Shown here piece by piece: positions 3,237-12,966 of a stretch of 14,064 nucleotides of DNA (position 1 is the stretch's first letter; the number at the start of each line of letters is the position of its first letter). Made by a program: the position numbers and the translations under genes. This stretch comes from a virus (lineage: Duplodnaviria > Heunggongvirae > Uroviricota > Caudoviricetes). Under the pieces are notes generated by a model. It saw only the letters and a program-made list of their open reading frames with translations, searched no databases and had not been told where the DNA came from. The DNA lies in the IMG/VR virus record IMGVR_UViG_2563366799_000001. One strand, 5' to 3'.

Positions 3237-3569
3237 TTAATGTGGTGTGCTTCGTGACAATAAATTAATAACCAACACACCGGCACAAATCAACATCATG
3301 CCTATAACGGCTGGCAGGTCCAGCCGTTGGACGAAAAACCCCCATGACAGTAAGCTAATCAGGACAATACCGACTCCTGACCAGATAGCATAAGCAATCC
3401 CTGTAGGAATATAAGCCAGCGTCTGAGCTAATAACCAGAATGATGCACAGTAACAAATAATTGTACCAACAGATGGCCATAACCGTGTAAAACCTTCTGA
3501 AAACTTCATTAAGGTTGTACCAATGACCTCTGCAAGTATTGCACCACCAAGATAAATATAAGGATTCAT
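3237..3569 (-). CDS. emrE: small multidrug resistance efflux transporter EmrE
   Basis: Translation from MNPYIYLGGAILAEVIGTTLMKFSEGF ... LLSRSTPH is 110 aa and matches EmrE nearly residue for residue from recall. AGGAAAG ribosome-binding site before ATG at 3569. The track ORF (3237..3623) includes 18 upstream codons judged non-coding. Confidence 0.93.
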   Translation of the reverse strand: MNPYIYLGGAILAEVIGTTLMKFSEGFTRLWPSVGTIICYCASFWLLAQTLAYIPTGIAYAIWSGVGIVLISLLSWGFFVQRLDLPAVIGMMLICAGVLVINLLSRSTPH

Positions 3570-4014
3570 AGCATATTCTTTCCTGTTCAAACTGGAGAGA
3601 ATTGTACTACAGATTGAACTCAACTCACCGGTTTCATCATTGTGTATCCATTGATGTTCTTTTGTATACCCTCAATATCCGTTTCATCGCGGTACTCCGG
3701 CGACACTCCTTAAAAATCAGGTTCGGCTCACCTTTCCTGCCCGTTCTCCCCGGGTAGCAAACCGATAATACACCGTTCGCCAGTCCTTACTATCAATGAC
3801 CAAGATTCCTGCCCATATCATTTTAGCCGCAGCCTAATTTATGCTGGTTATTGTTACGTGTGAATTCAGTTAGCTGCATAAATTGTCACGGAAGTGATAC
3901 ATCGATATTATCGAGAAATTCACTCGAATTTATACGATTGAAACTGCACTTATATCTGTTTTAAATACTCCGAACACTCTTTACAACAACTGTGTGAAAA
4001 TGGAGATAATTAAA

Positions 4015-4743
4015 ATGAAAAAGGGTTTGGCTATTTCATTCATTGCCGCCGTGTGTGCATTTGCTGCAAATGCGAGTGCTGAGGAAAGTAAAAACGGGTT
4101 TTATCTAACCGGTAAAGCCGGTGCCTCTGTGGCGTCGTTATCAGACCAGCGTTTTCAGTATGATGAAGGCGATTGGTCAACTGGATTTAAGGGCAGCAAC
4201 AACCATGACACGGCGTTTAGTGGTGGTATCGCAGCGGGTTATGACTTTTACCCACAGTTCAGTATTCCTGTTCGTACGGAGCTTGAATTTTATGCCCGCG
4301 GAAAGGCTGATACAGAATACAATCTTTTTAAGGACGACTGGGTGCGAGCTGACATGAAGAATGAGGTGTCAGTCAACAGCCTGATGTTGAACGCGTACTA
4401 TGACTTCCGGAACGACAGCGCATTCACCCCTTGGGTGTCCGCAGGGATTGGTTATGCAAGAATTCATCAGAAATCAACGGGTGTCATCACCTTCGATAAT
4501 GGATACGGATACAGTGACCGCGCATCTGATTCCCGTTCAGATTCTTCTGATAACTTCGCATGGAGCCTTGGTGCTGGCGTCCGCTATGACGTAACTCCAG
4601 ATGTCAGTCTGGACATCAGTTATCGCTACCTGGATGCAGGTGATGCCAATGTGACTTATACCGATGATTGGGGCGATAAATATAAATCAGATGTTGATGT
4701 AAAAAGTCATGACATTATGCTTGGTGTAACCTATAACTTCTGA
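4015..4743 (+). CDS. outer-membrane beta-barrel protein with signal peptide
   Basis: Start at internal ATG 4015 (MKKGLAISFIAAVCAFAANASA-EE signal peptide with AxA cleavage motif) preceded by GGAG. Alternating aromatic/hydrophilic beta-strand pattern and C-terminal ...GVTYNF, the terminal-Phe signature of outer-membrane barrels. Confidence 0.8.
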   Translation: MKKGLAISFIAAVCAFAANASAEESKNGFYLTGKAGASVASLSDQRFQYDEGDWSTGFKGSNNHDTAFSGGIAAGYDFYPQFSIPVRTELEFYARGKADTEYNLFKDDWVRADMKNEVSVNSLMLNAYYDFRNDSAFTPWVSAGIGYARIHQKSTGVITFDNGYGYSDRASDSRSDSSDNFAWSLGAGVRYDVTPDVSLDISYRYLDAGDANVTYTDDWGDKYKSDVDVKSHDIMLGVTYNF

Positions 4744-5144: not shown

Positions 5145-5237
5145 TCACACTGTTACAGCTGATAGTGCAACAACCTCCAACGCACAGAAGCTCTTATGCG
5201 TCCCCAGGTAATCAATAATTGCCTCTTTGCCCGTCAT
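5145..5237 (-). pseudogene. ren: ren remnant (30 codons, premature stop)
   Basis: ATG overlaps the P stop codon (ATGA) as in lambda. Translation MTGKEAIIDYLGTHKSFCALEVVALSAVTV* matches the lambda Ren N-terminus (MTGKEAIIHYLGTHNSFCAPDVAAL...) then terminates. Confidence 0.55.
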
Positions 5238-5935
5238 ACACTTGCTCCTTTCAGCCCAAACTTCGCTTTGATTTCTGCGATCTTCGCCAGAGCCTGAACA
5301 CGATTAAGCGGTCTCCCGCCCATAACAGGAAGTTGTTTTACTGGTTCAGGTATCGCCTCACCACGGTTAATTCGCGCTGTCATACAGGCCAGTTCATCGG
5401 CAGCCTTGCGCCGTAATTCCGCATCAGTCAGCGCATTGGCCCGCATGTTCTGATACAGGTTGGTAACCAGCCAGTAGTGCGCGTTTGATTTCCACGGATA
5501 AGACTCTGCATCCGGATACAGGCCACGTTTCCGGCAATACTCGTAAACCATATCAACCAGCTCGCTGGCGTTTGGCAGCCCGGCGGTAACGGATGCTTCT
5601 TCCCGGCACCAGGCAACAAACTGCCCGGGTGATGGCAGGAATGGTCGATTCTGCCGACGGGCTACGCGCATTCCTGCGTTAACCTGTTCCATCGTGGTGA
5701 TCCCGTTTTCCCGGAAAGCCAGAACCCACTGGCGGCGGATTTCGTTCAGTTCGTTCTGGTCCCGGTTAGCCAGGCTCGCCGGGAAAGTTGCCAGTAACTG
5801 GCTGAACACACCATTGATGATCTGCGCTACCTGTTGTACCTGCGGCTTTTCGTCGTACTGTTCCGGCATGTTGTTGGCGATCCGGCGCATCTGCTCACGG
5901 TCAAAGTTAACCATCTGTGCGGCGATGTTTTTCAT
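5234..5935 (-). CDS. P: lambda-type replication protein P (DnaB helicase loader)
   Basis: 233-aa translation MKNIAAQMVNFDREQMRRIANNMPEQYDEKPQ ... KFGLKGASV matches lambda P almost exactly from recall. GGGGTGG ribosome-binding site; start overlaps the stop of the upstream O fragment. Confidence 0.95.
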   Translation of the reverse strand: MKNIAAQMVNFDREQMRRIANNMPEQYDEKPQVQQVAQIINGVFSQLLATFPASLANRDQNELNEIRRQWVLAFRENGITTMEQVNAGMRVARRQNRPFLPSPGQFVAWCREEASVTAGLPNASELVDMVYEYCRKRGLYPDAESYPWKSNAHYWLVTNLYQNMRANALTDAELRRKAADELACMTARINRGEAIPEPVKQLPVMGGRPLNRVQALAKIAEIKAKFGLKGASV

Positions 5936-6539: not shown

Positions 6540-7325
6540 ATGAGTACAGCACTCGCAACGCTGGCTGGGAAGCTGGCTGAACGTGTCGGCATGGATTCTG
6601 TCGACCCACAGGAACTGATCACCACTCTTCGCCAGACGGCATTTAAAGGTGATGCCAGCGATGCGCAGTTCATCGCATTGTTGATCGTCGCCAACCAGTA
6701 CGGCCTTAATCCGTGGACGAAAGAAATTTACGCCTTCCCTGACAAGCAGAACGGCATCGTTCCGGTGGTGGGCGTTGATGGCTGGTCCCGCATCATCAAT
6801 GAAAACCAGCAGTTTGATGGCATGGACTTTGAGCAGGACAATGAATCCTGCACATGCCGGATTTACCGCAAGGACCGTAATCATCCGATCTGCGTTACCG
6901 AGTGGATGGATGAATGCCGCCGCGAACCATTCAAAACCCGTGAAGGCAGAGAAATCACGGGGCCGTGGCAGTCGCATCCTAAACGGATGTTACGGCATAA
7001 AGCCATGATTCAGTGTGCCCGTCTCGCCTTCGGATTTGCGGGTATCTATGACAAGGATGAAGCCGAGCGCATTGTCGAAAATACCGCATACACTGCAGAA
7101 CGTCAGCCGGAACGCGACATCACTCCGGTTAACGATGAAACCATGCAGGAGATTAACACTCTGCTGATTGCCCTGGACAAAACATGGGATGACGACTTAT
7201 TGCCGCTCTGTTCCCAGATATTTCGCCGCGACATTCGCGCATCGTCGGAACTGACACAGGCCGAAGCAGTGAAAGCTCTTGGATTCCTGAAACAGAAAGC
7301 CTCTGAACAGAAGGTGGCTGCATGA
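6540..7325 (+). CDS. bet: Red beta single-strand annealing protein (Bet)
   Basis: 261-aa translation [38 protein letters not shown] ... EQKVAA matches lambda Bet from recall; stop overlaps the exo start. Confidence 0.96.
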
Positions 7326-8002
7326 CACCGGACATTATCCTGCAGCGTACCGGGATCGACGTGAGAGCTGTCGAACAGGGGGATGATGCGTGGCACAAAT
7401 TACGGCTCGGCGTCATCACCGCTTCAGAAGTTCACAACGTGATAGCAAAACCCCGCTCAGGAAAGAAATGGCCTGACATGAAAATGTCCTACTTCCACAC
7501 CCTGCTTGCCGAGGTTTGCACCGGTGTGGCTCCGGAAGTTAACGCTAAGGCGCTGGCCTGGGGAAAACAGTACGAGAACGACGCCAGAGCCCTCTTTGAG
7601 TTCACTTCCGGCGTGAATGTTACTGAATCCCCGATCATCTATCGCGACGAAAGTATGCGCACCGCCTGCTCTCCCGATGGTTTATGCAGTGACGGCAACG
7701 GCCTTGAACTGAAATGCCCGTTTACCTCCCGGGATTTCACGAAATTCCGGCTCGGTGGTTTCGAGGCAATAAAATCGGCTTACATGGCCCAGGTGCAGTA
7801 CAGCATGTGGGTGACTCGAAAAGATGCCTGGTACTTTGCCAACTATGACCCGCGCATGAAGCGTGAAGGCCTGCATTATGTCGTGATTGAGCGGAATGAA
7901 AAGTACATGGCGAGTTTTGACGAGATGGTGCCGGAGTTCATCGAAAAAATGGACGAGGCACTGGCTGAAATTGGTTTTGTATTTGGGGAGCAATGGCGAT
8001 GA
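7322..8002 (+). CDS. exo: lambda exonuclease (Red alpha, 5'-3' dsDNA exonuclease)
   Basis: 226-aa translation [47 protein letters not shown] ... FVFGEQWR matches lambda Exo from recall. Confidence 0.96.
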
Positions 8003-9001: not shown

Positions 9002-9280
9002 ATGTTCAGAATCATTTTTCCTAACACCTGGTACGTCGACCACCACGGCACTCCCTGCAAAATCCTGCGTTCTACCCACAACAAAGTTCACTACATCCGA
9101 AAAGGCAGAACATGTATCGCCAGCATGTTCCGCTTTAATCATGACTTTGAACCTGTGAATAAAGCTGATGCAGATCGGATAGCAGAAGAGATCGAAACGG
9201 CAGAACACATTAAGAAGTTACGTGACATGCGTTCAAAAAGCAGAGGTAACCATGGAATCATACAGCCTCACACTCGATGA
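9002..9280 (+). CDS. hypothetical prophage protein (92 aa)
   Basis: Complete ORF with strong GAGGTG ribosome-binding site 5 nt upstream; no recognisable motif. 3' end overlaps the xis start. Confidence 0.45.
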   Translation: MFRIIFPNTWYVDHHGTPCKILRSTHNKVHYIRKGRTCIASMFRFNHDFEPVNKADADRIAEEIETAEHIKKLRDMRSKSRGNHGIIQPHTR

Positions 9281-9602
9281 GGCCTGTCAGTTTCTCAAGA
9301 TATCCAGACCTACCGCTACCAACTGGATACGAACAGGCCGCCTACAGGCAACACGCAAAGACCCCACTAAACTAAAATCTCCTTACCTCACAACACGACA
9401 AGCCTGCATTGCGGCGCTTCAGTCTCCGCTGCATACTGTCCAGGTGAGCGCGGGTGATGGCATAACAGAGGAAAGAAAATGTCACTCTTCCGCAGAGGTG
9501 AAATATGGTACGCCAGTTTCACATTGCCGAACGGTAAAAGATTTAAACAGTCTCTTGGAACAAAGGACAAAAGGCAGGCGACAGAACTCCATGACAAGCT
9601 AA
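9252..9602 (+). CDS. xis: excisionase (P22-type Xis, 116 aa)
   Basis: Internal ATG 9252 ([32 protein letters not shown]..., helix-turn-helix) preceded by GAGGT. Sits immediately upstream of int and overlaps it by about 124 nt in another frame. Confidence 0.65.
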
Positions 9603-10642
9603 AGGCTGAAGCATGGCGGGTCAGCAAACTTGGTGAAATACCTGATATAACGTTCGAGGAAGCGTGTGTCAGGTGGCTTGAAGAGAAAGCACATAAAAAA
9701 TCACTGGACGATGACAAAAGCCGGATCGGATTCTGGCTTCAACATTTCGCAGGAATGCAACTAAGAGACATTACTGAATCAAAAATTTATTCAGCAATGC
9801 AGAAAATGACGAACCGGCGTAATGAGGAAAACTGGAAACTCAGGGCAGAAGCATGCAGAAAAAAAGGGAAACCTGTTCCAGAATACAAGCCAAAACCAGC
9901 GTCTGTTGCAACGAAGGCTACGCATCTTTCATTTATAAAAGCCCTACTAAGAGCCGCAGAGCGTGAATGGAAAATGCTGGATAAGGCACCAATTATTAAA
10001 GTGCCTCAACCAAAGAATAAACGGATCCGCTGGCTGGAGCCCCATGAAGCACAAAGGCTGATTGATGAATGTCCGGAGCCATTAAAGTCTGTTGTTGAAT
10101 TTGCACTGGCAACAGGCTTAAGACGCTCGAACATCATCAACCTTGAATGGCAACAAATAGATATGCAGCGCCGGGTGGCATGGATAAACCCGGAAGAGAG
10201 TAAATCAAACCGCGCAATCGGCGTTGCGCTGAATGATACTGCATGTCGCGTATTGAAAAAACAAATCGGGAATCATCACCGTTGGGTATTTGTGTACAAG
10301 GAAAGCTGTACCAAACCAGACGGAACGAAAGCGCCAACAGTAAGGAAGATGCGGTATGACGCAAACACAGCCTGGAAAGCGGCGCTGAGACGGGCTGGTA
10401 TTGATGATTTCAGATTTCACGACTTGAGACACACCTGGGCAAGTTGGCTGGTTCAAGCCGGAGTCCCGTTGTCAGTGTTACAGGAAATGGGAGGCTGGGA
10501 GTCTATCGAAATGGTTCGTCGATATGCTCACCTTGCACCTAATCACCTTACCGAACACGCACGGCAAATAGACTCGATCCTGAACCCATCGGTCCCAAAT
10601 TTGTCCCAGTCAAAAAATAAGGAAGGTACTAATGATGTGTAA
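9479..10642 (+). CDS. int: P22/DLP12-type tyrosine integrase
   Basis: 387-aa ORF. N-terminus [34 protein letters not shown]; catalytic-domain motifs [12 protein letters not shown] (HxxR) and VRRYAHL (Tyr). 3' end abuts a tRNA-Thr 3' fragment, the P22-family att arrangement. Confidence 0.93.
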
Positions 10643-10656
10643 CTTATTGATTTAAA

Positions 10657-10708
10657 TGGTGCCGATAATAGGAGTCGAACCTACGACCTTCGCATTACGA
10701 ATGCGAAG
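10657..10708 (-). other. 3' fragment of tRNA-Thr(CGU) (thrW-type att core); 5' half of the tRNA absent
   Basis: Reverse complement reads ...TCGCATTCGTAATGCGAAGGTCGTAGGTTCGACTCCTATTATCGGCACCA: anticodon stem-loop with CGU anticodon, variable loop, T arm, acceptor 3' strand and CCA. Sequence to the right does not continue as the D arm or 5' acceptor strand. Confidence 0.8.
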
Positions 10709-10790
10709 TTTTTATATTTTAACTGCTTGAACAACCATCAGAAATCACAAATTTATCATTTTAAATCATAATATTAAAACAAAAAACCTG

Positions 10791-10820
10791 TTGATGTAAA
10801 TTGATGAGTGTTGATGTTTA
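10791..10820 (+). repeat. three tandem 10-bp-phased TTGATG repeats upstream of the second integrase
   Basis: TTGATGTAAA / TTGATGAGTG / TTGATGTTTA at 10791, 10801 and 10811, about 70-100 bp upstream of the int ATG at 10889. Confidence 0.6.
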
Positions 10821-10888
10821 TCCTTTCAATTTACTTACACCAGCCGTTACATTACTGTAAACCGTAATCCCCAACAGGAACCCTAAAA

Positions 10889-12208
10889 ATGGCGCTTTCA
10901 AGACAAAAACTAACCTTCGAACGAATTCGAAGATTTACTTTACCTGAAGGGAAAAACCAAGTTTTCCTTTGGGATACGGACGTAACAAGCTTGGCATGTC
11001 GAGCAACTCGTGGAGCAAAAGCCTTTGTATTCCAAAGCCTGTATGCGGGAAAAACCCTTCGCATGACCATTGGCAACATTAACGATTGGAGGATTGATGA
11101 TGCGAGGGCCGAAGCCAGGCGACTGCAAACATTAATCGATACTGGGATAGATCCGCGTATAGCTAAGGCGGAAAAAATTGCTGAAGCGGAATCACAGCAG
11201 GCTGAATCTCGTAAAACGAAGGCAACCTTTTCAAGCGCTTGGGAAGATTATCTTGATGAATTGAGAACCGGAATCAGCGCAAAAACTAAACGCCCCTACT
11301 CTGCACGCTACATTGCCGATCACGTTAACTTGTCCAGTCGTGGAGGCGAAAGTAAAAAAAGAGGCCGGGGCCCAACCTCACCTGGGCCACTGGCTAGCCT
11401 GCTCGACCGACCATTATCAGAACTAACACCAGAGAACATTGCCGAATGGCTAAGTACAGAGAGACAAAATCGGCCTACCGTCACTGCTCATGCCTACCGT
11501 CTGTTGCGTGCATTCATCAAATGGGCTAATTACCAGAAAAAATATCAGGGAATAATCGATGGCGATCTTGCACAAGATCATAACGTGAGAAAAATGGTTC
11601 CAATATCAGCGAGCAAAGCGGGAGATTGCTTACAAAAAGAACAGCTCAAAAGCTGGTTCAGTGCCGTGCGTAGCCTCAATAATCCCATTGCATCAGCCTA
11701 TCTCCAAGTGCTTTTGCTCACCGGTGCACGGCGTGAAGAAATTTCCTCACTTCGCTGGTCTGACATAGATTTCAAATGGTCAAGCATGAGAATTAAAGAC
11801 AAGATCGAAGGCGAGCGAATTATCCCCCTCACTCCCTATGTTTCTGACTTGTTACGCTCACTGATGGAGATCCCCAATCGTGGTACAAACGAGGAGAATT
11901 GGGTTTTCAGAAGTAACAGCAAAAGTGGCAAAATTATTGAACCGCGTTCAGCACATAATAGAGCATTAACTCGCGCGGAGTTACCACATATCAGCTTGCA
12001 CGGATTGCGCCGTAGTTTTGGGACCCTCGCTGAATGGGTCGAAGTACCAACAGGTATTGTTGCGCAGATTATGGGCCATAAGCCTAGCGCTCTTGCTGAA
12101 AAGCACTATCGCCGCCGTCCATTAGATTTGCTAAGAAAATGGCATGAAAAAGTTGAATTATGGATCTTAGAAGAAGCAAAAATAAAAAACAACGTTGATA
12201 AGCGTTGA
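10889..12208 (+). CDS. P4-type tyrosine integrase
   Basis: 439-aa ORF. C-terminal catalytic motifs LHGLRRSFGTLAEW and KHYRRR (Tyr); long N-terminal arm-binding-type domain. Unrelated in sequence to the upstream P22-type Int. Confidence 0.88.
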   Translation: MALSRQKLTFERIRRFTLPEGKNQVFLWDTDVTSLACRATRGAKAFVFQSLYAGKTLRMTIGNINDWRIDDARAEARRLQTLIDTGIDPRIAKAEKIAEAESQQAESRKTKATFSSAWEDYLDELRTGISAKTKRPYSARYIADHVNLSSRGGESKKRGRGPTSPGPLASLLDRPLSELTPENIAEWLSTERQNRPTVTAHAYRLLRAFIKWANYQKKYQGIIDGDLAQDHNVRKMVPISASKAGDCLQKEQLKSWFSAVRSLNNPIASAYLQVLLLTGARREEISSLRWSDIDFKWSSMRIKDKIEGERIIPLTPYVSDLLRSLMEIPNRGTNEENWVFRSNSKSGKIIEPRSAHNRALTRAELPHISLHGLRRSFGTLAEWVEVPTGIVAQIMGHKPSALAEKHYRRRPLDLLRKWHEKVELWILEEAKIKNNVDKR

Positions 12209-12225
12209 TTTTATCAAATATCAAC
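12194..12225 (+). repeat. GTTGAT direct repeats (10-bp spacing) followed by inverted copies, at the 3' end of the integrase gene
   Basis: GTTGAT at 12194 and 12204, then ATCAA at 12213 and ATCAAC at 12220, forming an imperfect palindrome that overlaps the int stop codon. Same motif as the array at 10791..10820. Confidence 0.55.
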
Positions 12226-12247
12226 AACTTACATAAAATCACATGTG

Positions 12248-12275
12248 TTGACAGAAATTTTTTTTCAGTTATCTT
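12248..12275 (+). promoter_or_regulatory. putative sigma70 promoter for the downstream operon
   Basis: Consensus -35 TTGACA at 12248..12253, 16-bp T-rich spacer, -10-like TATCTT at 12270..12275. Not verified. Confidence 0.3.
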
Positions 12276-12322: not shown

Positions 12323-12748
12323 GTGACTAACCCAATAACTGTATCAAGAGAAGACCGAAGTGCGGAAATCAGAGCGAGATGGGGTTTACATCCGACTAAA
12401 AACAAAAGTTCTAATTTTTGGGAAACAACAATTCAGCGTTTTAATAATAGTAGTACTGACCGAATACTACCTCTTTGGCACCGTGTTTCAAAACTTTTAG
12501 TTGCTATTAGGAATGTAGTCAATACTATAACATGCCCTTTTCCACCAAAGGGGAATACTTCCCGCTCACGCCGAAGTTCAACAACGTCATCAAAAAACTC
12601 ATCATCATCTTCATCGGATGGTAGTAGTAGCGACCCCGATCCCGATAGAGACCCCATATTCACCCCTTTTCATTTCATTCTTTCATCTCTGTTAAAAACA
12701 ATGATCGTCTTATTTGCCCACATATCAAATGTTGGGGTGATGAAATGA
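12323..12748 (+). CDS. hypothetical protein with Ser/Asp-rich low-complexity segment (GTG start); coding strand uncertain
   Basis: GTG at 12323 preceded by AGGAG 10 nt upstream; stop overlaps the next gene's ATG (ATGA coupling). Contains SRSRRSSTTSSKNSSSSSSDGSSSDPDPDRD. An antisense ORF (12433..12663) with an acidic stretch is an alternative. Confidence 0.3.
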   Translation: MTNPITVSREDRSAEIRARWGLHPTKNKSSNFWETTIQRFNNSSTDRILPLWHRVSKLLVAIRNVVNTITCPFPPKGNTSRSRRSSTTSSKNSSSSSSDGSSSDPDPDRDPIFTPFHFILSSLLKTMIVLFAHISNVGVMK

Positions 12749-12966
12749 GCGATATCAAACATCAAAAACCCTCTCAGTCACAACTAATTTCTACCCGCGA
12801 GTTAGCTAATATTATTGGCTATGAAGTACAAACTATTCGAGCTTGGCTTTGCAAAGACAAACTGCCTAATGGTTTACCGCGACCGAAGAAAATTAAAAAC
12901 CGACACTATTGGTCACGTAAAGACATTGATAGATACCTATTAACCTTCTCAGTATATAGTAACTAA
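12745..12966 (+). CDS. AlpA-like helix-turn-helix phage regulatory / excisionase-family protein
   Basis: 73 aa. ISTRELANIIGYEVQTIRAWL then LPRPKKIKNRHYWSRKDIDRYL, the same pattern as AlpA (HTH followed by FPKK...W...EIDEWL). Position just downstream of a P4-type integrase is typical. Confidence 0.6.
   Translation: MSDIKHQKPSQSQLISTRELANIIGYEVQTIRAWLCKDKLPNGLPRPKKIKNRHYWSRKDIDRYLLTFSVYSN

Follow-up and report, generated by a model that had tools for sequence, protein, structure and literature searches.

Helically phased GTTGAT repeats in the recombination and regulatory module of an IntF-type thrW island

Introduction

In phage lambda, Xis occupies three head-to-tail sites (X1, X1.5, and X2), which are spaced by about one helical turn, include a weaker middle site, and abut the integrase (Int) arm-type site P2 on its core side, with sites for integration host factor (IHF) nearby. 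The small helix-turn-helix (HTH) proteins Cox of phage P2, Apl of phage 186, and Vis of P4 act both as excisionases and as regulators and bind short direct repeats phased by the helical turn at the attachment (att) site as well as at a promoter. In this study, we analyze GTTGAT repeats with 10-bp phasing on both sides of the gene for an IntF-like tyrosine integrase (int) in a stretch of 14,064 nucleotides from a virus of the Caudoviricetes (IMG/VR record IMGVR_UViG_2563366799_000001), designated the window throughout. The integrase gene is followed by a yagN-like gene and a ykgV-like gene, the latter encoding a small winged HTH protein of the excisionase and regulator class, which is our candidate for a recombination directionality factor (RDF).

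The closest systems have been described for integrative elements of proteobacteria. TorI recognizes five cooperative sites in attL of KplE1 (PMC3509656), and the study of this element also reported an about 23-fold autorepression of ptwF-intF of Escherichia coli K-12, the orthologue of the int gene of the window (PMC2951348). RdfS of ICEMlSymR7A binds about 40 bp directly upstream of the IntS arm-type site, changes the activity of PintS, and binds to its own promoter (PMC11963761). Expression of AlpA triggers excision of CP4-57 and of CP4So (PMC5148205; PMC3105296), and for CP4-6, the cryptic element that carries intF in K-12, excision frequencies of 1–27 per 100,000 cells were reported (PMC3105296). 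A search of the literature returned no paper that maps binding sites of IntF, YkgV, or CP4-6.

Phased GTTGAT arrays on both sides of int

The upstream array consists of three TTGATG copies at exact 10-bp spacing on the plus strand (10791, 10801, and 10811), as stated in a preliminary description of the sequence; preceded by one base, the outer copies read GTTGAT (10790 and 10810) and the middle one ATTGAT. At the 3′ end of int, the preliminary description listed two direct and two inverted copies overlapping the gene. The direct pair at 12194 and 12204 was recovered, and the int stop codon (12206–12208) lies within its second copy. The second inverted copy (12220–12225, minus strand) is likewise exact and is located downstream of the gene, while the first one (12214–12219, ATCAAA, reading TTTGAT on the minus strand) matches at only five of the six positions and is not kept in relatives in an alignment of int 3′ ends.

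The question of whether the motif is equally dense elsewhere can be answered in two parts: taken singly, the hexamers exceed expectation only mildly (18 versus 10 expected and 24 versus 13 expected), yet their phased arrangement is highly non-random and confined to the flanks of int and to the other att arm. Pairs of RTTGAY, i.e., (A/G)TTGA(T/C), exactly 10 bp apart on one strand occur within the 14 kb only at 10790/10800/10810 and at 12194/12204. The mean number of such pairs in 500 second-order Markov simulations was 0.048; no simulated sequence had three or more pairs, and none had a triple of any 6-mer at 10-bp spacing. In the 91 kb of E. coli AW1.7 that comprise the whole corresponding island with its flanks, phased RTTGAY pairs are present at three places, the sole additional one being the thrW-proximal island end, and a single off-target phased pair was found across 19 related loci. 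Since the same composite of motifs is present in both att arms (see below) and phased pairs occur at only three places in 91 kb, the phased GTTGAT repeats are real, conserved, and functional elements of the recombination module. An imperfect 23-nt inverted repeat (74%), in which ATCA-containing DNA left of the array (10733–10755) pairs with the array itself (10797–10819), is not conserved in relatives; it was dropped as probably fortuitous.

A scan of contigs for relatives gave four loci, and a wider set was built from homologous proteins and the contigs encoding them. The resulting 19 related loci have integrases with 44–100% identity and comprise seven close loci and 12 further ones (44–82%), the latter from Pectobacterium, Aeromonas, Yersinia, Aquitalea, Paraburkholderia, and metagenomes, i.e., from gamma- and beta-proteobacteria. 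The motif search near these homologous integrases revealed an array upstream of int in 18 of the 19 loci. It reads RTTGA(T/C/A) on the int strand, is located 40–100 bp upstream of int (at exactly −99 from the int ATG in eight loci), and has a spacing of exactly 10 bp, or of 20 bp at loci whose middle site has degenerated. In an upstream alignment of seven loci (E. coli intF alleles, Citrobacter, Kluyvera, and Scandinavium), the two outer sites never vary, and the middle one is weaker (TTGACA or TTAACA). The array is always followed directly on its 3′ side by two direct repeats 11–12 bp apart, often with an inverted third copy. Several beta-proteobacterial relatives contain a second GTTGAT(TGAT) cluster 25–45 bp from the tRNA core, which has no clear enterobacterial counterpart.

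Repeat block, int promoter, and the opposite end of the island

The 27-bp block next to the upstream array (Table 1) contains the direct repeats ACTTACA (10833–10839) and CGTTACA (10845–10851), 12 bp apart. It is nearly invariant across the seven aligned loci, and the DNA on either side drifts. The block is overlapped by a promoter-like element whose TTTACT and TAnnGT hexamers are invariant in the same loci. This geometry would suit a self-regulated int promoter within an att arm (the OD/STI class of Panis et al. 2010): int is transcribed away from the core, and the conserved TTTACT-N17-TAnnGT overlaps the proposed Int sites. Repression is known for the K-12 orthologue only, where a fragment from −145 to +71 containing both array and block has an active PintF promoter that is repressed about 23-fold by IntF (PMC2951348). 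We propose that this repression may be explained by the overlap between the TTACA repeats and the promoter-like element. The earlier suggestion that the small regulator activates int found no support; the effect on record for the K-12 orthologue is the autorepression by IntF.

The same composite is present at the other end of such islands. In AW1.7, the thrW-proximal arm is covered by 3827640–3827810 of NZ_CP073624.1, and the end next to the intact thrW gene reads ATTGATcttcGTTGATagaATTTACTTACACCAGCtGTTACATTA, about 55 bp from the tRNA, i.e., ATTGAT-N4-GTTGAT followed by ATTTACTTACACCAGCTGTTACATTA. In an island whose IntF is identical to that of K-12, the thrW-proximal arm reads GTTGACtgttATTGATaaaaATCACTTACACCAGCACTTACA, i.e., GTTGAC-N4-ATTGAT followed by CACTTACACCAGCACTTACA. 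Both element ends thus carry the same motifs in the orientation found upstream of int, with a pair of TTACA-type repeats (spaced by 12 bp) after the phased RTTGAY sites. Counted from the first repeat of the block, the GTTGAT copies are in the register −13/−23/−33/−43, and this applies to the two arms as well as to relatives. The ACTTACA/CGTTACA repeats, which the preliminary description does not mention, appear to be better candidates for integrase arm-type sites than the GTTGAT copies. The junction in the window had been suggested to be an attL; being int-proximal and located at the thrW pseudo-tRNA, it is attR relative to thrW, and functionally it resembles attL of KplE1.

Downstream array, IHF site, and promoter of the yagN-ykgV operon

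In the alignment of int 3′ ends, the direct GTTGAT copies and the motif ATCAA(C/T)A....TTA are conserved, and the preceding codons of the int tail and the intergenic DNA vary; in the latter, the −35 element TTGA(CA) and the yagN ribosome-binding site are conserved as well. The downstream array occurs at exact spacing in nine of 11 loci of the clade. A perfect match to the IHF consensus WATCAANNNNTTR, with variable NNNN, is found at the homologous place in ten of 11 loci, compared with a background of 0.14 per kb. From this conserved consensus, an IHF site is predicted at 12219–12231, and the exact inverted GTTGAT copy, previously counted as a member of the array, is better explained as its ATCAA half. 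The putative promoter of the yagN-ykgV operon starts 16 bp past the IHF consensus, with the array and the IHF site at about −60 to −85 relative to it. At 12227–12233, beside the downstream array, the sequence ACTTACA of the first block repeat recurs exactly. Since it shares positions with the TTR half of the IHF consensus, the match may be coincidental; alternatively, the yagN promoter may have one integrase arm-type site of its own.

In one beta-proteobacterial relative, which has a different gene order and the HTH gene 2 kb from int, a phased 10-bp CGTTG array is located upstream of the HTH gene, which indicates that the array goes with the HTH operon and not with the 3′ end of int. On a beta-proteobacterial metagenome contig (L020), the sequence CGTTGGcaagCGTTGCtagcCGTTGTttagCGTCGC at about 7400–7445 contains four copies phased by 10 bp, about 100 bp upstream of an HTH_17 gene, and is likely an operator analogous to the downstream array of the window.

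Covariation of the two motifs with the two proteins

The repeat block occurs in five types, which match the five arm-domain clades of Int in an identity matrix (41–90% identity). ACTTACA/CGTTACA is typical of the enterobacterial and Aeromonas clade, GGTTACAT of L014, L016, L017, and L021, ACAAGTACA of L013 and L022, GGGGGACAT of L015, and TGCCTACACGG of L020. The small HTH proteins are more divergent (15–64% identity), but all except one keep the glutamine and arginine of the recognition helix, (K/R)PQ(T/S)(I/L)R(K/R) with the consensus QT(I/L)R.W, and the array motif is constant wherever the helix keeps Q..R, as in PQT(I/L)RKW.

The exception, L014 from Paraburkholderia, is also the sole locus without an RTTGAY array. 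L014 and L016 share 79% identity in the Int arm domain and have the same block, whereas the HTH helix of L014 reads KSESVLKRY, with ESVL replacing QT(I/L)R. At both positions where relatives have TTGAT clusters, L014 has TTACGAT or GTACGAT, and all three TACGAT copies of the 7.3-kb locus are found there; the segments 2828–2846 and 2924–2940 contain TTACGAT, GTACGAT, and TTATGAC at 10-bp spacing. This locus is a natural specificity variant. The complementary case is formed by L013, L020, L021, and L022, in which near-identical HTH helices stand beside three different block motifs. According to these two patterns, the block varies with the integrase and the array with the HTH protein, and we infer from this covariation that the block is probably recognized by the former and the array by the latter.

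The integrase and the YkgV-like protein

The integrase was described beforehand as P4-type, and this was borne out: it has an N-terminal Arm-DNA-bind_3 domain (PF13356, E = 1.7e-10) and a C-terminal Phage_integrase domain (PF00589, E = 2.7e-18), and all catalytic residues of the R..HxxR..H..Y signature are present in the motifs ARREE, HGLRRS, MGH, and KHY of the translation. It is 88–90% identical to IntF of CP4-6 in K-12. When the integrase was used in a tblastn search of a phage collection, only matches with at most 33% identity were obtained, so there is no well-studied close phage relative; a search of PDB sequences with the Int arm domain gave nothing useful. The start codon at 10889 is backed by an AGGA ribosome-binding site (10876–10879), and GGAG or AGGA before the ATG is conserved. 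The longer IntF of 466 aa that is annotated in K-12 and by the Prokaryotic Genome Annotation Pipeline (PGAP) would start at ATG 10814 inside array site 3. It was rejected, as the 25-codon extension contains a stop codon in the window and its amino acid sequence is not conserved. We regard the extension as a probable artefact of annotation and the gene as intact. The extended call recurs at L001 20176–21570 and L019 2230, and the AW1.7 gene is consequently labeled a pseudogene with "internal stop."

The YkgV-like protein has the size and setting of the small MerR-like winged HTH RDFs (about 60–90 aa, encoded beside their integrase), with 73 aa, a position two genes downstream of int, and a predicted order of strand, helix, helix, wing strands, and helix. 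It matches Pfam HTH_17 with 28.0 bits (cut-off 27) and PHROG 66, "excisionase and transcriptional regulator" (E = 3.5e-6). Its earlier designation as AlpA-like is not supported by the profile searches: neither Pfam Phage_AlpA (PF05930, E ≤ 0.01) nor an AlpA family of NCBIfam was matched, HTH_17 being found instead. PGAP labels a 42%-identical homologue "AlpA family transcriptional regulator." A structure model built on an alignment of three sequences (the homologue search gave three hits) has a predicted local distance difference test score (pLDDT) of 74; its top Foldseek matches are gpNu1, RacA, BldC, RdfS, Pukovnik Xis, and Cox (4lhf), all with non-significant E values above 0.1. The best PDB match of the sequence profile of the RDF alignment is BldC (E = 0.045). 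The yagN-like product matched nothing in Pfam, NCBIfam, or PHROG.

Proposed function of the arrays and alternative explanations

The view that the GTTGAT copies are phased sites for cooperative binding to one face of the DNA, within an integrase recombination and regulation module, is supported by their conserved position and their recurrence in the second att arm. Two binders had been suggested for them, a small regulator and the integrase. Comparative covariation favors the HTH regulator or excisionase over the Int arm domain, and the neighboring block fits integrase arm-type sites better than the array does. On balance, we consider it probable that the arrays are sites of the YkgV-like excisionase and regulator, that the adjoining block provides integrase arm-type sites overlapping the int promoter, and that the downstream array together with IHF controls yagN-ykgV; the location of the downstream array upstream of a conserved RDF-operon promoter agrees with this. 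Positions, phasing, conservation, presence in both arms, and covariation are observed, and from the sequences we infer the likely partner of each site, the probable promoter positions, and the presumable direction of regulation. The integrase would bind the TTACA repeats in both arms and, on the upstream block, would repress its own gene. The YkgV-like RDF would bind the GTTGAT copies head to tail, one protein per helical turn and directly beside the integrase sites. Upon expression of yagN-ykgV, it would form a short filament on both arms that may bend the DNA and help the integrase to assemble the excisive complex; it would probably also alter int transcription. At the downstream array, combined with an IHF-induced bend, the RDF might exert feedback on its own operon.

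Several points weigh against this proposal. The RDFs share only 25–64% identity and yet the motif is constant, which could point to a host factor or to the Int arm domain with its higher conservation. The ATCAA half of the IHF consensus reads TTGAT on the complementary strand, and site 1 of K-12 is a one-mismatch IHF match. The thrW-proximal array lies distal to the block and not between block and core, so that bending in the simple manner of Xis would account for one arm only. The int promoter proposed here is weak, the structural likeness of YkgV to excisionases is statistically non-significant, the reciprocal half of the covariation comes from a single locus (L014), and the assignment of arrays to proteins in the IntF/YkgV family is a prediction from sequence.

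Some of these points would be met if the GTTGAT copies were themselves arm-type sites of the IntF-like integrase, comparable to lambda P′1–P′3, with the 27-bp block acting as RDF site or int promoter and the downstream array allowing the integrase to regulate yagN-ykgV. Heterobivalent integrases classically have tandem arm-type sites on both arms with a spacing of about 10 bp, the array-containing fragment is repressed by IntF alone (PMC2951348), and the higher conservation of the Int arm domain compared with the RDF fits an invariant motif. We nevertheless regard this explanation as rather unlikely, because L014, with its closely related arm domain and the block of L016, has lost RTTGAY, and because it is the block, not the array, that changes between the five arm-domain clades. 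The block in turn is unlikely to be an RDF site, since near-identical RDF helices adjoin three different block motifs. The constancy of the motif across distant hosts and elements might also mean that the repeats are occupied by a nucleoid protein of the host, such as IHF or Fis, which is itself conserved and gives the att arms and the promoter their shape. TTGAT makes up one half of the IHF consensus, a perfect and conserved consensus is located at 12219–12231, and another perfect match is present in the thrW-proximal arm of AW1.7. The direct copies in the window, however, lack the TTR half and have at least two mismatches to the consensus, and IHF covers about 35 bp of DNA, so that sites 10 bp apart cannot be co-occupied. 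For these reasons, IHF was rejected for the direct copies and accepted for the inverted one. A host factor would also not be expected to change its motif together with the RDF helix, as seen in L014, and we consider such a protein an improbable occupant of the arrays.

A further explanation would regard the downstream copies as an RNA or coding feature, i.e., a terminator hairpin of int or a constraint on its C-terminal codons, and the upstream triple as chance in AT-rich DNA. The copies do overlap the last int codons, and positions 12190–12207 (CAACGTTGATAAGCGTTG) can form a 7-bp hairpin followed by the U-rich run AUUUUAU (z = −3.1 in the window), which could serve as int terminator in this allele. 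In relatives, however, the pairing is not kept (z = −0.7 and −0.5) whereas the GTTGAT letters are, the preceding C-terminal residues vary freely, chance is excluded by the simulations and the 91-kb control, and 18 of the 19 loci have kept the upstream array. With the hairpin unconserved and no Rfam family besides the tRNA remnant, the RNA reading was rejected, and we attach hardly any probability to this explanation as a whole.

The island and the neighboring prophage

The region around the arrays is the int-proximal attachment junction and regulatory module of an approximately 45-kb CP4-6-like island in thrW (Table 1). It has the features of IntF-type thrW islands, namely a duplicated tRNA 3′ end, int beside the pseudo-tRNA, and the gene order int, yagN-like, ykgV-like, and yagM-like open reading frame (ORF) as in K-12. 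ARAGORN detected no full tRNA at the pseudo-tRNA. The tRNA model of Rfam scored 36 bits, above the gathering threshold, over 10660–10732 (minus strand) with a full-length alignment, of which only the 3′ 49 nt are identical to thrW; no other Rfam family was matched in the region. In AW1.7, the same DNA without a prophage on its left is the end of a 44.6-kb island, which extends from paoD/yagP′ to thrW-proA. The cargo of the thrW island includes genes for sucrose utilization, restriction and defence, and toxin-antitoxin systems.

The pseudo-tRNA is also the junction with a phage on the left. Identity with phage-free E. coli loci begins at 10639, and the DNA to the left of this position is a lambdoid, P22-like prophage remnant inserted into the pseudo-tRNA, giving a tandem array of elements at thrW. 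In addition to the genes listed in Table 1, the remnant encodes a DksA/TraR zinc-finger protein and a DUF4222 protein. An integrase remnant is present at the same place in K-12-type loci such as CFSAN051542. The segment 1466–4743 is AT-rich (33–40% GC) and resembles cargo or moron genes or an independent insertion inside the prophage remnant.

Table 1 Features of the window and second motif clusters of related loci
Feature	Position	Strand	Remarks
thrW (tRNA-Thr) 3′ 49 nt, ptwF-like pseudo-tRNA	10657–10705	−	Island att core; identical to 3′ part of intact thrW in AW1.7
AT-rich spacer between core and array	10711–10789	.	Two one-mismatch IHF-consensus matches (10743 and 10764); poorly conserved
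Upstream array GTTGAT(G), ATTGAT(G), GTTGAT(G) at exact 10 bp	10790–10816	+	Proposed sites of YkgV-like RDF/regulator
Block AATTTACTTACACCAGCCGTTACATTA, 27 bp	10828–10854	+	Proposed integrase arm-type sites
Putative int promoter TTTACT-N17-TACTGT	10830–10858	+	Overlaps block; read from sequence by eye; below promoter-scan threshold
IntF-like tyrosine integrase, 439 aa, intact	10889–12208	+	Pfam, translation, identity to K-12 IntF
Downstream array, two direct GTTGAT 10 bp apart	12194–12209	+	Proposed RDF operator upstream of yagN-ykgV promoter
Perfect IHF consensus TATCAACAACTTA (WATCAANNNNTTR)	12219–12231	+	Contains exact inverted copy 12220–12225
Sigma-70-like promoter TTGACA-N16-TATCTT, yagN-like/ykgV-like operon (putative)	12248–12275	+	10/12 match; −35 TTGA invariant
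yagN-like ORF, 141 aa, first gene of operon	12323–12748	+	GTG aligns with ATG of relatives behind conserved AGGAGAT
ykgV-like gene, 73-aa winged HTH protein, excisionase/regulator class	12745–12966	+	Proposed binder of GTTGAT arrays
Prophage P22 AR C-terminal domain	1031–1354
Large serine recombinase	1466–2992	−
SMR small multidrug-resistance transporter	3237–3623	−
Outer-membrane beta-barrel protein	3994–4743	+
Prophage lambda-P-like ORF (fragment)	5234–5935	Opposite to others
Prophage RecT	6540–7325
Prophage YqaJ exonuclease	7322–8002
Prophage excisionase-type HTH protein	9222–9602
Prophage integrase, 387 aa	9479–10642
Second GTTGAT(TGAT) clusters, related loci	L013 2845–2860; L015 2856–2866; L016 2838–2848; L017 2166–2182; L021 3887–3897; L022 3845–3857		Coordinates of the respective loci

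Significance

The arrangement most likely represents the ordinary design for elements of this kind, newly mapped in the IntF/CP4-6 family, and no new kind of mechanism. Cargo-bearing islands of the CP4-6 type are common at thrW in E. coli and in related genera. For their control region, the analysis provides a predicted map that places the core, the RDF array, the int promoter with the Int arm sites, and the operator of the RDF operon together with the IHF site. Phased RTTGAY beside a pair of 11–12-bp repeats is a signature by which island ends can be found, L014 offers a natural variant of array specificity, and the recurrent annotation error of an N-terminally extended IntF, along with the resulting pseudogene calls, is corrected.

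A more speculative thought, which we hold to be doubtful, is that in this integrase family evolution has acted separately on the two parts of the arm code, with Int repeats of at least five types and an RDF code (RTTGAY at 10 bp and the QT(I/L)R.W helix) common to thr-tRNA islands of Enterobacteriaceae, Aeromonas, and beta-proteobacteria. If this were true, an RDF could act on unrelated resident elements by binding and switching their int promoters, att arms, and RDF operons, and would be a trans-acting excision signal between islands. Such cross-talk might extend to tandem arrays like the island and the P22-like prophage described here, and the unit of array, IHF site, and promoter would then be a positive-feedback commitment switch.

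Comparison with known systems

With respect to the DNA sites alone, the upstream array resembles the Xis sites of lambda in having three phased sites, a weaker middle one, an abutting (proposed) arm-type site, with the array located between that site and the core, and IHF-consensus matches in the vicinity. Lambda differs in that its Xis sites are found in one arm only and do not control an xis promoter, whereas in the island arrays are present in both arms and at the RDF operon. Cox, Apl, and Vis differ by controlling lysis-lysogeny or late promoters, and beyond the general winged HTH fold no sequence relationship to them was detected. For Streptomyces BldC (PDB 6AMA/6AMK), a MerR- or Xis-like winged HTH protein, binding to direct repeats as head-to-tail multimers with one protein per turn is like the mode proposed here, but BldC is a developmental regulator outside recombination modules and its similarity to the RDF of the window is weak.

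Among the integrative elements, CP4-57 with alpA-intA and CP4So of Shewanella share with the window the small HTH gene downstream of a P4-type integrase gene (PMC5148205; PMC3105296). They differ in that the window protein reaches HTH_17 and not Phage_AlpA, and the AlpA sites were not defined in these two studies. KplE1 (CPS-53), with IntS and TorI, is similar in that the integrase gene is transcribed away from the tRNA-derived core and has its promoter inside the att arm (PMC2951348), and clustered cooperative RDF sites adjoin Int arm-type sites and the integrase represses itself (PMC2951348; PMC3509656), as we propose for the island. The two elements differ in their integrase and RDF families, in the tRNA gene (argW in KplE1), and in the site sequences, which were mapped experimentally in KplE1 and predicted here; moreover, unlike in KplE1, the RDF gene of the window is located downstream of int and has its own array and IHF site.

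Especially close is the IntS/RdfS system of ICEMlSymR7A, in which an autorepressing P4-family integrase acts at a tRNA gene (PMC11963761). As proposed for the island, its winged-helix RDF is placed upstream of the arm-type site before int, modulates Pint, and binds its own promoter (PMC11963761). The differences concern the location of rdfS, which is far from intS and heads a conjugation operon, and the mode of DNA recognition: RdfS operates without a consensus motif and oligomerizes via an extra N-terminal helix, whereas the window has a crisp, conserved hexamer at 10-bp phasing.

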